Origin: a virus
Strand: one strand, 5' to 3'
IMG/VR virus record: IMGVR_UViG_3300027917_000023
Length of the DNA: 48,816 nucleotides
How positions within the stretch are numbered: position 1 is the stretch's first letter; each line of letters starts with the position of its first letter. The notes beneath the pieces were generated by a model. It was not told the origin of the DNA and searched no databases. It worked only from the letters and a program-made list of their open reading frames with translations. This document shows positions 34,557 through 41,326 of the stretch, one piece after another. The position numbers and the translations under genes were made by a program.

Positions 34557-35138
34557 TTGTATTTTATAGATATGTTCATAACTGCCGAAGACCACATCAA
34601 ATATCTACACGAATTGATTTCACAGCGTCCCAAAAACGTTTATATTGCCACATTCAACATATTCGCAGGGATAATGTTTGATGGTGCTGATATCAACAAT
34701 TGGGGCGCAAAATACAACAATGAAATGCATGGGGTGCTTGACAATTTGCAGGACTCCAGAGCAAACACCAGGATATTGGTTGGTATACCAGACCTAATTC
34801 CATGCAGGCCTGGCTGCGAAAGTTGCTTGGAGAAATATGTTAAATTATTGACAAGAACGTTGAAACATGCCGAAAAATGGGCATTTAATTGGAAATATGT
34901 CGAAAGATTCCACATGAAGAGTTACATTTTCGATTATGGAGACACCATTAAGGGTGTGGTTGGTGGTAGAAATTTAACGACAAGCAATTATGCTGATTTA
35001 ACCTTCAAAATAGGAGCAGACAAATGCAAAGTGATTAGACATATATTCAATAGACATTGGGATAATTCCAAGGAAATCACACAAGAAAACATCAATAATA
35101 CTATTCTTGAACAAATGGATTACTTGAACAAAGAGTGA
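34557..35138 (+). CDS. Phospholipase D-family (single HKD) nuclease, Nuc-like
   Basis: 193-aa ORF with 'HMKSYIFDYGDTIKGVVGGRNLTTSN', matching the HxKxxxxD...GxxN signature of the PLD/Nuc endonuclease family. Confidence 0.55.
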   Translation: MYFIDMFITAEDHIKYLHELISQRPKNVYIATFNIFAGIMFDGADINNWGAKYNNEMHGVLDNLQDSRANTRILVGIPDLIPCRPGCESCLEKYVKLLTRTLKHAEKWAFNWKYVERFHMKSYIFDYGDTIKGVVGGRNLTTSNYADLTFKIGADKCKVIRHIFNRHWDNSKEITQENINNTILEQMDYLNKE

Positions 35139-35350
35139 TGGTTTTAGCGACAGTAGCAATCAAGGCAGTGGCAGTCACAGCAGCAATAGCCATTGGATAT
35201 CTGATTTTCTATGCAACTATAGAAAATTGTTTGAGCAAATGGGGCAGAACAGAGTTTGACCGAGATTTTGGCGCTTTTATGACAATTGTAGCATTTGCTG
35301 TGCTTGTTGGCGACCTAGTCTGCCTCATAATCTGGCTGGTCGAGACATGA
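35135..35350 (+). CDS. Small two-TM membrane protein (paralog A)
   Basis: 71-aa ORF MMVLATVAIKAVAVTAAIAIGYLIF...LIIWLV. Resembles ORF 38647. Confidence 0.5.
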   Translation: MMVLATVAIKAVAVTAAIAIGYLIFYATIENCLSKWGRTEFDRDFGAFMTIVAFAVLVGDLVCLIIWLVET

Positions 35351-35365
35351 TAGGAAATATACGAC

Positions 35366-35908
35366 ATGTATGGAATACGTATAGAATACGACATGTATGA
35401 TATGTGGGCAATAACGTCCGAACTACGAGCAAAAGACCCAATAAAGATCGTCACTGTAAAAGAAATATTTGGGCCGTTAGCTCAGCGATTCGTTGACCAG
35501 ATTGGTGGGCGTACTAGAATGGGATGGGTGCTGCAAGATAACACAGGTGATGCTGTCAAATTAAGTCGCAAATTCGGGATTGAAGAGTGTAAGTTGTGTG
35601 TAGAAAGCAGGTTGACCGGCTGGCATGTACTTGGTGACACCAAAGAATCGTTAGATATCACGGTTGTGGTCGAAGCAAGCCCAAAAGTGCTAAGCAACCC
35701 TGACCGTAAAAGCGTATGGATTAGAATGGTAGTCGTCGACGAGGCAAATGGGTATCAACGACACATATTCTATAGTGATGGGACACTTTTTTATTATTGG
35801 GGGCGCACCAATTCTATAGTGTTCACCCACGCCCTCAGGTATGGTGCAGTATTAGATTTGGAACTGGTAGCCATATTAAGAGAAAAGATGGAGTCGCATG
35901 AATTGTAA
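35366..35908 (+). CDS. Hypothetical protein (180 aa)
   Basis: ORF only. Confidence 0.5.
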   Translation: MYGIRIEYDMYDMWAITSELRAKDPIKIVTVKEIFGPLAQRFVDQIGGRTRMGWVLQDNTGDAVKLSRKFGIEECKLCVESRLTGWHVLGDTKESLDITVVVEASPKVLSNPDRKSVWIRMVVVDEANGYQRHIFYSDGTLFYYWGRTNSIVFTHALRYGAVLDLELVAILREKMESHEL

Positions 35909-36407
35909 AGAAGAAGAAGACGAGCTTGCCACAATAGTGTATGAATTCCTTATCGAAAATGGATATAAAAAGGCTCCAGGCCCGCATAAAGTAATCATCA
36001 GAGGAAGAACGTTCCACATAAGCACAAGGAAACCAGGTTGCGTTTCGTTGAGTACATGTGCGCCGTTAACGTGTAGCATAGTCTCGTGGTTGTATGAACC
36101 AAATGGGCTACAAAGGCTGCTTGACAAAGTAAAAGAGTGTGAAAACAGAAACTGTCATTCATGTGATAATTCAATATTATATAAGATGTACGCTTCATCG
36201 AGCCAGGCGATAGCCATTTTGACAGCATCTATGTCAAAATATTCAATATCTATGTCAAAATTGGCCGTAAAATCAATGTCGCTACAATCTATAGTTAAAA
36301 TATTCAAACAAAAGCAAGCCATGGACAAAGCAATGGCTGAATACTTGACAAGAAGGGCTTTGCCTGTTACCATGTTTTTCAAAGGAGGGGAAAATGGACT
36401 TTCTTGA
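35898..36407 (+). CDS. Hypothetical protein (169 aa), related to the small paralog family
   Basis: N-terminal 'IVYEFLIENGYKK' and internal 'LYEPNGLQRLLDKV' resemble the family motifs. Confidence 0.5.
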   Translation: MNCKEEEDELATIVYEFLIENGYKKAPGPHKVIIRGRTFHISTRKPGCVSLSTCAPLTCSIVSWLYEPNGLQRLLDKVKECENRNCHSCDNSILYKMYASSSQAIAILTASMSKYSISMSKLAVKSMSLQSIVKIFKQKQAMDKAMAEYLTRRALPVTMFFKGGENGLS

Positions 36408-36582
36408 TTGGATTGGGGCATTATTTGGTTCCTTCATCTTTTCAGCCATTGGATTATGTCCTGGAATGCATGATGACGACGATGAGCCCGAACGTTGTCC
36501 AGCAACTGGGTGGGTCATCACCAACACTGACGAAGATGGGAACGAATATACGATGAAAGATGGACCTGGCGGTACTAAATAA
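36394..36582 (+). CDS. Small membrane/acidic protein (62 aa)
   Basis: ORF with a hydrophobic N-terminus and a DDDDE stretch. Confidence 0.4.
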   Translation: MDFLDWIGALFGSFIFSAIGLCPGMHDDDDEPERCPATGWVITNTDEDGNEYTMKDGPGGTK

Positions 36583-36808
36583 TGCCAATGCGTTCCCGAT
36601 GTATTTAATGTGTCAGGTTCTGGTCAAATGTAAATAGGGTGGGATTTCCCACCACGTTCAGAGAGATTCTAAGAAGTGGAATTCAGACCCTTACAGCCCG
36701 AACGACTTAGGTCACGGCATTGGCTGCCAACAGGTAGCCCGTGTGTCGTGGCCGAGGTCGCGACGACCAAGATTAAAGGATATGATTCCTTTAATCAAGG
36801 CTCGGCAG

Positions 36809-36888
36809 GGCCGTAAGGGGTTAAGAACATTCTGGAAACCAATCAAGACCCCTTGCGGCCAACCGGCCTCAAGGGGTCTTGCTTTATT
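36809..36888 (+). promoter_or_regulatory. Attenuator-like element: intrinsic terminator hairpin with an overlapping, mutually exclusive upstream helix
   Basis: 36844-36855 (caagaccccttg) pairs perfectly (12 bp) with 36870-36881 (caaggggtcttg), followed by ctttatt..ttttt. But 36849-36860 (ccccttgcggcc) can instead pair 12 bp (one G-U) with 36809-36820 (ggccgtaagggg). Confidence 0.35.
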
Positions 36889-36898
36889 AGGACTTTTT

Positions 36899-36972
36899 GC
36901 GAGCATCGTTCAATGGTAGGACGTGAGACTTCCACTCTCAAAATGAGGGTTCGATCCCCTCTGCTCGCACCA
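36899..36972 (+). tRNA. tRNA-Gly (anticodon TCC)
   Basis: Acceptor gcgagca/tgctcgc. Anticodon arm tgaga-cttccac-tctca. T arm gaggg-ttcgatc-ccctc. 3' ACCA. Confidence 0.8.
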
Positions 36973-37014
36973 GGACAGACGTGGGATCTGGAGCGGTTTA
37001 GTCACCGTTAAGGA

Positions 37015-37040
37015 TACTCACGGCGGGTGAGGTGTTTTTT
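37015..37040 (+). terminator. Putative intrinsic terminator (weak stem) after tRNA-Gly
   Basis: ctcac-ggcgg-gtgag hairpin followed by gtgtttttt. Confidence 0.3.
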
Positions 37041-37187
37041 CTGTGCCTTTTGGGACCACCAGCGTTCACTCAAAAAAGGCACCGTGTTATGAAAGGACTC
37101 AGAAACGGGGACGCAAGGCGTGAGATTTGCTAGACTGGCACTTGGATCGCTGGTGCTCTCGTGGAGACCCAAGTAATAGCACGTTAT

Positions 37188-37893: not shown

Positions 37894-38346
37894 GGCCCAG
37901 AGATTTGGGTTCAAATCCCATGACCAGCAGGATGAGTAAGCCTGTTGTGATAGCTTAATCTGGTAAAGTGCTGGGCGTGATTACGAAGCCAGAAAATACT
38001 GGCACAATATAGAGAGAAACCGGAAGCGGGGGTTCGAATCCCTCCCATCGCAGGATGAATAAACCTGTTCGGGTGGCCTAGTCATGAGTTGGCTTGCAGA
38101 ATGAATAACTCTGCTTGGGGCTATACCTGGTGGTAGTTTAGCGGCAGAACGCCGGTTCGAAAATGAAGCCAGAGGCGCGGGTTCGATTCCCGCCTCCCCC
38201 CTCATCTAGAGGGCTAGGATGAGTAAGCCTACGCAGCGGGGAGTAGCTCAGTGGTAGAGCACTGGCTAAAAGAAAAGCCAGAGATAACCCCTGGGCAAGC
38301 AGTGGGATGAGTAAGCCCACTCAGGTAGGATTAACTCTGGCATTAA
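37894..38346 (+). repeat. Array of degenerate tRNA-like units (5' and 3' half-like pieces related to tRNA-Asp/Arg) separated by a conserved 13-nt motif GGATGAGTAAGCC (4 copies)
   Basis: Motif at 37930-37942, 38053-38065 (ggatgaataaacc), 38217-38229 and 38305-38317. Each is preceded by variable/T-arm/acceptor-3'-like sequence and followed by acceptor-5'/D-arm-like sequence (e.g. 38231-38262 cggggag-ta-gctc-agtggta-gagc-a-ctggc). No unit folds into a complete cloverleaf. Confidence 0.5.
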
Positions 38347-38421: not shown

Positions 38422-38439
38422 ACCAGCGTGGTCCTCTAC

Positions 38440-38545
38440 AAGAATTTCAGACGTTCTCTTTGGGAGGTTGCAGGTTCGAGTCCTGTCCCCCGGATCATCC
38501 GGGGGTAGCTCAATTTGGTAGAGCGCTAGTCATTTTATTCTTGTT
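38440..38545 (+). other. tRNA 3'-half (T arm + acceptor 3' strand) joined through a 3-nt loop to a tRNA 5'-half (acceptor 5' strand + D arm): candidate circularly permuted tRNA or decayed tandem duplicate
   Basis: gcagg-ttcgagt-cctgt then cccccgga (38487-94), tca, tccggggg (38498-505), then ta-gctc-aatttggta-gagc-g-ctagt. The 8-bp acceptor complement forms a hairpin across the junction. Confidence 0.4.
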
Positions 38546-38646
38546 CAATGACCCGCATTTTTAATAATTTTTCATCGGGCTCCGCGCCGGACTTAGTCTC
38601 CATAAGTATTTTAATCATAGAATTACGTTAAGGACAAAAGAGGTGT

Positions 38647-40852: not shown

Positions 40853-40926
40853 TGCCCCGTAGTGTAATGGAAGCACGAGCGGCTTTGACCCGCTTAGCGA
40901 AAGTTCGAACCTTTCCGGGGCAACCA
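40853..40926 (+). tRNA. tRNA-Gln (anticodon TTG)
   Basis: Acceptor tgccccg/cggggca. Anticodon arm agcgg-ctttgac-ccgct. T arm gaaag-ttcgaac-ctttc. 3' ACCA. Confidence 0.8.
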
Positions 40927-41115
40927 GATCACCCGAGCCACCGCTGGAAACAGAGGAAGGTCAGGACACCACTGCTTAAGGTGGGAGGGAATTTTCCCGC
41001 TTACCACCAAGGGTGCAATCTCAAGCAGGCTGAGAGTGTGAGCAGCTCTACGAAAGCCGGGTAGAGAGCAAAGATTAATGGTGGCATAGAACAGAATCCT
41101 GCCTACTGGGTGATC
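40927..41115 (+). ncRNA. Structured non-coding element (~190 nt) closed by an 8-bp helix
   Basis: gatcaccc (40927-34) pairs with gggtgatc (41108-15). Internal helices ggtgg/ccacc and gctctac/gtagagc. Contains ggaaggtcagg. Starts at the base after tRNA-Gln. Confidence 0.3.
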
Positions 41116-41175
41116 TTTGATATTAAAGTATTTTATTACTCGTTTATATGATTCACATCAAAACCTGATAACTAT

Positions 41176-41326
41176 GGGGAAGTAGCTCAACAGGATAGAG
41201 TTAGTATGGCGGACCTACATCTTGTAGTCCTATCTATCGGCTAGTGCAGATAGGCAACGCCAGATGGACGGACCGTCAGAATACCCCGTATGGGTGACGT
41301 GGGTTCGAGTCCCACCTTCTCCACCA
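41176..41326 (+). tRNA. tRNA-like element (151 nt) with canonical acceptor stem (G3:U70), D arm, T arm and ACCA end, plus a ~75-nt internal insertion in place of or within the anticodon region
   Basis: 5' ggggaag-ta-gctc-aacaggata-gagt. 3' gtggg-ttcgagt-cccac-cttctcc-a-cca. The 7-bp acceptor includes G3:U70. The insertion forms hairpins ggacctac/gtagtcc and cctatct/agatagg. A possible class-II-like variable hairpin ccc-gtat-ggg is present. Confidence 0.35.

Follow-up and report, generated by a model that had tools for sequence, protein, structure and literature searches.

The DNA immediately upstream of a phage tRNA array raises the question of whether transcription into the tRNA genes is conditional. 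In the window analyzed here (48,816 nucleotides of IMG/VR virus record IMGVR_UViG_3300027917_000023), an array of 18 tRNA genes, all on the + strand, begins with tRNA-Gly(UCC) at 36899 and runs to 47152. The window lies on a 261,688-bp metagenomic contig that carries T4-like sheath, gp15, and gp13 genes and comes from an uncultivated jumbo myovirus. The original prediction, made from the letters of the window alone, held that the leader just before the array ends in attenuator-like alternative RNA structures. Phage tRNA arrays are usually seen as constitutive accessories, which match codon usage or replace host tRNAs lost in infection. Our analysis suggests that the leader (36583-36898) is a conserved, cis-acting terminator/antiterminator attenuator, a conclusion we consider probable when ribosome-mediated and riboswitch-like readings are taken jointly. 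The specific form that we favor, with confidence that is about evenly balanced, is a ribosome-mediated (leader-peptide) transcription attenuator that gates read-through into the tRNA array.

The evidence comes from the window and from four further distinct leaders (L005, L006, L010, and L019), homologous to window positions 36560-36898, that were recovered from related phage contigs. As search handles, we used a conserved gp13-like protein and a 19-nt core pattern run on metagenomes. Every leader sits directly 5' of a tRNA array headed by tRNA-Gly(UCC). The five leaders represent three lineages, namely the window, L019, and a clade formed by L005, L006, and L010 (“L005 clade”). The elements of the proposed switch, in window positions, are as follows:

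36688-36699, + strand: segment 1, the 5' strand of helix P1 (CCCUUACAGCCC), with an extension in which 36682-87 pairs with 36831-36 (fold, covariation)
36703-36760, + strand: hairpin P2 of a three-way junction (predicted fold)
36764-36804, + strand: hairpin P3, with tip GAUUAAAGGA / UCCUUUAAUC (predicted fold)
36808-36822, + strand: segment 2, the 3' strand of P1 and the 5' strand of the antiterminator, which holds the stop codon TAA (36814-16) of a leader open reading frame (ORF)
36844-36860, + strand: segment 3, the 5' arm of the terminator, of which 36847-60 doubles as the 3' strand of the antiterminator (pairing, energetics, covariation)
36865-36881, + strand: segment 4, the 3' arm of the terminator (pairing; seven compensatory pairs)
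36882-36898, + strand: U-rich tail CUUUAUUAGGACUUUUU (sequence, terminator scan)
36899-36972, + strand: tRNA-Gly(UCC), the first gene 3' of the attenuator

In the terminator hairpin, positions 36844-36855 (CAAGACCCCTTG) are perfectly complementary to 36870-36881 (CAAGGGGTCTTG) over 12 bp, and beyond one C.U mismatch the stem resumes with GGCC/GGCC (36857-60/36865-68) to give a 17-position hairpin of about -31 kcal/mol. The perfect 12-bp stem had been predicted at exactly this place, and it is beyond chance: perfect hairpins with a stem of 12 bp or more and a loop no longer than 20 nt number only two in the window, where dinucleotide shuffles predict 0.075. A terminator scan lists the hairpin as of the Rho-independent type. 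The U tract that had been predicted along with it is present as a U-rich tail, which in the window is only moderate (CTTTATTAGGACTTTTT; five of eight positions are U). It is likewise mediocre in L019, where a U4 run begins three nt past the stem, and is a canonical U6 in the L005 clade (UUUUUUAUUAU). All five leaders have such a hairpin with a U-rich tail 16-37 nt before tRNA-Gly (17 nt in the window), and a promoter scan of the window found no promoter-like site from the hairpin to tRNA-Gly. Hairpin and U tract are predicted to form an intrinsic terminator in front of tRNA-Gly. The other long perfect hairpin of the window, with 16-bp arms (19859-74/19889-904), is flanked by two minus-strand ORFs and probably also serves as a terminator.

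The leader can form two further, competing helices. The antiterminator joins 36809-36821 (GGCCGTAAGGGGT) to 36848-36860 (ACCCCTTGCGGCC) through 12 Watson-Crick pairs and one G.U pair; the extended form has 14 bp (36809-22 with 36847-60) and a stability of -28.7 kcal/mol. It overlaps the terminator by 7 nt of the 12-nt arm, or by 14 nt of the extended arm. Since it draws on the apical portion of the terminator 5' arm, only one of the two structures can form at a time, which bears out the original description of an alternative 12-bp helix sharing 7 nt with the hairpin. The third helix, P1, pairs 36688-99 with 36808-19 and closes a three-way junction with hairpins P2 and P3. The four segments thus give the pairings 1:2 (P1), 2:3 (antiterminator), and 3:4 (terminator).

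Folding of the leader illustrates how these helices depend on the extent of the transcript. The leader is far more stable than shuffled sequences (z = -7.3; z = -7.4 for L019). In the full-length window leader at equilibrium, the terminator has a probability of ~1 and the antiterminator of ~0, as 36808-19 is engaged with 36688-99. When the 3' part is folded by itself, the antiterminator wins, and its probability reaches 0.99 in a nascent transcript that ends before the 3' arm. The folding check that had been proposed for 36583-36900 gives a divided answer: the upstream helix dominates the nascent RNA and all but vanishes from the complete one. The antiterminator probability in nascent transcripts is 0.88 in L019, 0.76 in L005, 0.20 in L006, and 0.01 in L010, and in all five full-length leaders P1 plus the terminator reaches at least 0.9. 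Before segment 4 is transcribed, P1 and the antiterminator differ by +3 to -11 kcal/mol, and findpath puts the barriers at 4-16 kcal/mol; in the folding model, such near-equal energies are the signature of a poised switch.

If the alternative pairing matters, it should be visible in the comparison among lineages. We aligned the four segments without gaps, replacing the variable interior and linker regions by A6 spacers and letting the helices set the register; an additional A-U pair at the apex in L010 was removed. For the terminator, 94% of the cells across the five leaders are paired and seven pairs are changed on both sides. For the antiterminator (13-16 bp), 91% are paired, with four double-sided changes and a sequence specific to each lineage; its score was reached by none of 500 shuffles, and slid controls gave at most 59% paired cells without double changes. 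For P1, 92% are paired, with one double-sided change; where the window has an A.C mismatch, L019 has G-C and the L005 clade has A-U. Nor can P1 by itself account for two of the covarying antiterminator pairs, which fall outside it. In stem P2b, the window and the L005 clade differ by three compensatory pairs. Antiterminator strands of the same lineage pair with -27 to -29 kcal/mol, whereas cross-lineage combinations with the L005 clade reach only -15 to -22 kcal/mol. The order of stability is also alike in the three lineages, rising from P1 (-17 to -22.5 kcal/mol) through the antiterminator (-27 to -29 kcal/mol) to the terminator (-30 to -31 kcal/mol). Conservation in related phages, named at the outset as a check, is thus found for both the terminator and the antiterminator, each retained with compensatory changes in three lineages.

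These results bear directly on an alternative explanation of the locus, in which the hairpin is the ordinary terminator of an upstream operon and the alternative pairing arose by chance. The hairpin does come after + strand ORFs (34557-36582), and GC-rich repeats readily offer alternative helices. However, the alternative helix covaries, the relatives have a consensus promoter between the upstream gene and the element, perfect hairpins of this length exceed expectation in the window as given above, and tRNA-Gly would be left without a promoter of its own. We therefore regard this explanation as scarcely credible.

What could operate the switch is suggested by a feature that the original prediction, which called the leader gene-free, had missed. 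The leader contains an ORF with these parts:

36660-36678, + strand: Shine-Dalgarno (SD)-like AGAGAGA (36660-66) and GTG start (36676-78) of the leader ORF
36676-36816, + strand: leader ORF, 46 codons plus TAA (VEFRPLQPERLRSRHWLPTGSPCVVAEVATTKIKGYDSFNQGSAGP)
36685-36712, + strand: 27/28-identical block AGACCCTTACAGCC[C/A]GAACGACTTAGGT, covering codons 4-12 (AGA CCC TTA CAG CCN GAA CGA CTT AGG)

An ORF of 43-49 codons is present in all five leaders, and its stop always lies inside segment 2, within the motif GGCC/UG-UAA/UAG-GGG (TAA or TAG). The start codon, which is ATG in the relatives and GTG in the window, precedes segment 1 by 7-12 nt (12 nt in the window), with an SD-like element (GAGAG, GGAG, GAGC, or GAGG) 6-9 nt before it in each leader. 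L019 keeps this placement, though its interior sequence is unrelated to that of the window. With the P1 strands held fixed in dinucleotide shuffles, a frame that stays open, starts within 15 nt, and has an SD-like 4-mer arises with a chance of ~0.002 per lineage. Indels within the ORF all keep the frame (the window and the L005 clade differ by +6 and -15, L006 has -3, and L010 a compensated +1/-1), whereas those in the flanking non-coding parts are 1, 2, 4, 5, 10, or 17 nt. The block 36685-36712 is 96% identical to L005 and L006 between diverged flanks, and its sole difference is synonymous. The peptide, on the other hand, is poorly conserved, and the stems inside the ORF covary at the cost of amino-acid identity. 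To judge from these sequences, a kept frame with a variable peptide is the pattern typical of leader peptides rather than functional proteins. The peptide had no match in Pfam, and a known protein was dropped as a candidate.

Given a conserved small ORF in the leader, the ribosome is the likely trigger and, we infer, the best-supported one. The suggestion that read-through into the array could be regulated is supported by conservation of the switch in three lineages and by the lack of a promoter-like site between hairpin and tRNA-Gly, although the third helix and the ORF had gone unnoticed.

The same ORF is open to another interpretation, which would make the element an independent small gene that has a promoter of its own and ends in a leaky terminator. 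Its product would be either a structured sRNA of ~300 nt or the mRNA of a ~46-aa protein, the tRNAs would be made by constitutive read-through and RNase P, and the alternative pairing would not be regulatory. A consensus promoter and a strong hairpin flank the element, its fold is very stable, and other elements resembling non-coding RNAs occur in the same array. Phage T4, moreover, co-transcribes stable RNAs of unknown function with its tRNAs. Its tRNA cluster, with species 1 and 2, resembles the present locus in that a tRNA operon transcript carries extra structured RNA freed by tRNA-processing enzymes; to our knowledge, species 1 and 2 are not known as terminator switches or as carriers of leader ORFs. 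A small gene of this kind leaves unexplained the mimicry of segment 4 by segment 2 in every lineage, with four compensatory pairs to segment 3, the conserved order of stability, and the location of the stop within segment 2, and a protein product sits poorly with the weak conservation of the peptide. We consider this explanation unlikely.

Under ribosome-mediated attenuation, the leader would work as follows. Transcription would start at a sigma-70-type promoter, which lies directly 5' of the leader in the relatives and, in the window, at 36345-73, before an apparently inserted small gene. Without a ribosome, or with a ribosome keeping pace up to the stop codon, segment 2 would be held in P1 or masked, the 3:4 hairpin would form, and transcription would end before the tRNA genes. 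A ribosome lagging or stalled with its A site at about codons 4-13, the invariant block, would mask segment 1; segment 2 would then capture segment 3, the terminator could not nucleate, and polymerase would enter the tRNA genes. After read-through, RNase P would free tRNA-Gly from the leader.

We also folded four of the leaders with a 28-nt mask in place of the ribosome. For L005 and L010, P1 has a probability of 0.84-0.99 without a ribosome, and placing the A site at codons 4-13 brings the antiterminator to ~0.9. With the ribosome on the stop or the last codons before it, both P1 and the antiterminator disappear in all four leaders, which leaves segment 3 free to form the terminator. For the window and L019, the antiterminator is favored unless the ribosome stands at the end of the ORF. 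The modeled geometry fits: a ribosome on the stop (36814-16) would reach ~36826, short of the hairpin at 36844-81, with polymerase then at ~36890.

A switch with these energetics could also be driven by the RNA itself. In that case, the sensor would be the three-way-junction RNA, riboswitch-like or a protein- or RNA-binding aptamer, with a ligand that stabilizes or opens P1, and the ORF would be incidental. P1 indeed encloses a structured three-way junction with covarying stems, the 27/28 block spans both the P1 5' strand and the junction in the window and the L005 clade, nascent RNA gives P1 and the antiterminator almost equal energies, as is seen in riboswitch expression platforms, and a 3-nt toehold (36820-22) would permit strand displacement. 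Purine and TPP riboswitches share the P1-closed junction, the use of the P1 3' strand as the antiterminator strand, and the near-isoenergetic states. They differ from the present leaders, which have no junction core conserved across lineages, a long P1 (11-12 bp), and a conserved ORF through the junction. L019 is instructive here: it retains P1, the antiterminator, the terminator, and the ORF, whereas in the junction, P2, and P3 its sequence is unrelated to that of the window, so there is no conserved ligand-binding core. In addition, an incidental ORF does not explain the frame-preserving indels or the fixed placement of start and stop. Rfam scans of the window leader and its four relatives, at E values up to 10, gave no family for any of the five leaders, only chance-level alignments of the hairpin to miRNA and rnk-leader models; a known riboswitch or T-box-like leader is thus not supported. 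A junction sensor seems to us improbable, about as much so as the small gene.

T-box riboswitches deserve separate mention, since they too couple a terminator/antiterminator choice in a leader of ~300 nt to tRNA supply. Unlike them, the present element lacks the Stem I/specifier architecture, the T-box sequence, and any covariance-model match (E ≤ 10), and it contains an ORF. A 10-nt complementarity between 36675-84 and the anticodon arm of tRNA-Gly was considered as a possible site of tRNA sensing and rejected, as the relatives lack it.

The closest likeness is to the leader-peptide attenuators (trpL, hisL, leuL, thrL, ilvL, pheL, and pheM of pheST), although they have no sequence or Rfam similarity to this element. 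They share with it a promoter-proximal intrinsic terminator with overlapping 1:2, 2:3, and 3:4 helices, a short ORF with an SD over segment 1, a stop placed such that a terminating ribosome blocks segment 2, and expected termination in the absence of translation. The differences are also clear. The present element precedes phage tRNA genes rather than biosynthetic or synthetase genes, its ORF has 43-49 codons as compared with 14-32 and stops within segment 2, and segments 1 and 2 are separated by the two long hairpins of the three-way junction. Furthermore, it has only three or four scattered Arg codons among the first 14 in place of a homopolymeric run of regulatory codons.

Several of the observations weigh against ribosome-mediated attenuation. 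In the window and L019, the antiterminator is favored even without a ribosome and the U tract is mediocre, so termination there may be leaky. The comparison covers five distinct sequences in three lineages, and the helix alignment was built by us from excised segments; with only three lineages, the covariation rests on few independent substitutions. The ORF is three to four times longer than classical leader peptides, has no run of one regulatory codon, starts in the window with GTG behind a weak SD, and would require the ribosome to cross ~-50 kcal/mol of P2/P3 structure. This GC-rich region has long open stretches in other frames as well. Lastly, the clustering of rare codons described below was looked for in L005 and L006 and found in neither, and codon rarity is confounded by GC-rich structure.

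Which signal an attenuator of this type would sense can be narrowed only by hints. Three or four Arg codons (AGA, CGA, AGG, CGG) occur, scattered, among the first 14 codons in all three lineages. The rarest phage codons in the window ORF (CCC twice, CGA, and CGG; relative synonymous codon usage 0.14-0.22) are confined to codons 5-14 (4 of 13 versus 0 of 32, p = 0.005); rare codons were discarded as a general feature of the control region, since this holds in the window only. The array includes tRNA-Arg(ACG) and tRNA-Arg(UCU), readers of CGA and AGA. The Arg codons, the rare codons, and the tRNA-Arg genes are hints to the signal, not evidence for it. We propose, tentatively and with rather less than even confidence, that the phage gauges decoding capacity through the leader ORF and that stalling on the Arg-/Pro-rich block turns on the 18-tRNA array. 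Such stalling could follow scarcity of host tRNAs, their degradation in infection, or cleavage by anticodon-nuclease defenses. If true, this would amount to demand-driven feedback control of tRNA supply through classical attenuation.

A conserved attenuator before such an array would make phage tRNA expression conditional, and, if its trigger is a stalled ribosome, would provide a testable link from tRNA depletion (host shut-off or tRNA-cleaving defenses) to the expression of phage tRNAs. Leader-peptide attenuation has so far been known mainly from amino-acid biosynthesis operons; it would be extended to RNA genes and to viruses. We know of no tRNA operon under leader-ORF attenuation of this kind, and a full-text search of the literature turned up no earlier case of a tRNA operon or phage tRNA cluster under attenuation or antitermination, an absence that is no proof of novelty. 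The leaders also add an unannotated family of regulatory RNA and small ORF that is not in Rfam, Pfam, or PHROGs.

We note that the region 5' of the switch differs between the window and its relatives. The elements recognized there in the window are as follows:

36339-36373, + strand: family-type sigma-70 promoter, GAATAC-TTGACA (36345-50), a 17-nt spacer, and TGt-TACCAT (36368-73) (promoter scan)
36394-36582, + strand: o62, a window-specific 62-aa ORF with SD AGGAGG (36384-89), between promoter and leader
36545-36583, + strand: degenerate second promoter copy (ATGAAA at 36553-58; TAAATAAT at 36576-83), which aligns with the consensus promoter of the relatives
36598-36608, + strand: conserved 5'-leader motif GATGTATTTAA (GAYGTATTTAA in L019, L005, and L006)
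36638-36653, + strand: upstream hairpin GGUGGG-AUUU-CCCACC (predicted fold)

L019, L005, and L006 have a consensus promoter (TTGACA-17-TATAAT/TAAAAT) directly 5' of the leader. The window promoter (GAATACTTGACA…TGtTACCAT) differs from the promoter motif of the relatives, AAATACTTGACAGAAA, by three mismatches. For o62, no homologue was found in the relatives and no match in Pfam or PHROGs; from the arrangement of the sequence, o62 looks like an insertion between promoter and leader that was accompanied by a promoter duplication. The equivalent of the 36638-53 hairpin in L006 and L010 is, in single-sequence folds, a GC-rich hairpin of different sequence.

The motif GATGTATTTAA is present once in the window and doubled in L019 (as GAYGTATTTAA). 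In L005, L006, and L019, the promoters are bracketed by an inverted repeat, with TAAATAC just 5' of the -35 element and GTATTTA ~15-25 nt past the -10 element, and the downstream half of this repeat is the conserved motif. The repeat may act in the DNA, as the operator of a DNA-binding regulator, or in the RNA, as a signal. A separate explanation of the element would be processive antitermination, in the manner of HK022 put RNA or an rrn-type boxA/Nus leader, with polymerase modified to pass this terminator and later ones in the structured tRNA array. The position of GAYGTATTTAA near the transcription start, its loose likeness to boxA (…CUUUAA…), and several hairpin-plus-T sites within the array would suit this explanation. 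However, the likeness is weak (~6/10 positions by eye), the TTTAA part of the motif is missing in L010, there is no put-like or other Rfam match, and neither the 2:3 covariation nor the ORF is explained. We therefore make no claim of a boxA, the resemblance being too weak, and hold processive antitermination to be very unlikely.

Further upstream, o193 (34557-35138, + strand) contains an HxK(x)4D motif (HMKSYIFD) typical of nucleases and phosphodiesterases of the PLD family and had no match in PHROGs. In L005 and L006 it is the conserved gene next to the leader on its 5' side (37-40% identity), and it is also found in L019 (48%) and L003 (69%).

The set of leaders did not grow with wider searches. 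No close relatives of the window were found among deposited phages, the INPHARED collection being matched at tRNA-Ala only. Proteins o180, o169, and o193 had relatives only in one short contig lineage, L003/L004, which ends before the leader. Exact and degenerate DNA patterns run on viral, metagenome, and genome collections returned the same lineages and chance matches (L011, L014-L018, L041, L042, and L044). Homologues of a 249-aa structural protein lay in unrelated contexts, and the more distant relatives of the T4 gp13-like protein and of o193 had no nearby tRNA array.

Within the array itself, the original prediction had pointed to a weaker analogous pair of structures after tRNA-Gly, at 36999-37040. 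This is not supported: the site offers a 5-bp hairpin with six T (37017-31), in a spacer that folds like its shuffles (z = -0.8) and is missing in the relatives. There, tRNA-Trp follows tRNA-Gly by 5-7 nt (L005 2025-2032, L006 1345-1351), whereas the window has a 215-nt spacer (36973-37187) and tRNA-Ala(GGC) inserted after tRNA-Gly, so the composition of the array is fluid between relatives.

Other RNA-like elements occur farther along the array. A 197-nt element at 40925-41121 (+ strand), directly after tRNA-Gln(UUG), scores 66.5 bits against the RNase P RNA model RF00010 (E = 4e-20; gathering score 100). It keeps P1-P4 and the CR-I and CR-V motifs (GAGGAAGGUCAGG; ACAGAAUCCUGCCUAC), lacks the whole specificity domain, and has a counterpart in L010 (86-290, - strand, 60.5 bits). 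Judged by these motifs, it may be a phage-encoded minimal RNase P RNA consisting of the catalytic domain only. Sub-threshold matches to tmRNA (31.7-41 bits; gathering score 47) are found in the window at 41176-41326 (+ strand), in L013 at 49-122, and in L019 at 75-148. ARAGORN calls the latter two tRNA-Ala, and the matches may be tmRNA-like tRNA-like domains or simply Ala tRNAs. YrlA (Y RNA-like, RF02553) is matched below threshold at 38437-38548 and 38176-38260 (+ strand; 44.5 and 33.5 bits; gathering score 69), with position-conserved matches in the arrays of relatives (L009 1463-1527, L010 1539-1599). Finally, the tRNA covariance model has two matches, at threshold or slightly over it, that ARAGORN does not call, both on the + strand: 38133-38194 (29.0 bits) and the 109-nt match 37944-38052 (30.2 bits), the latter of which may be a degenerate tRNA or one that carries an insert.

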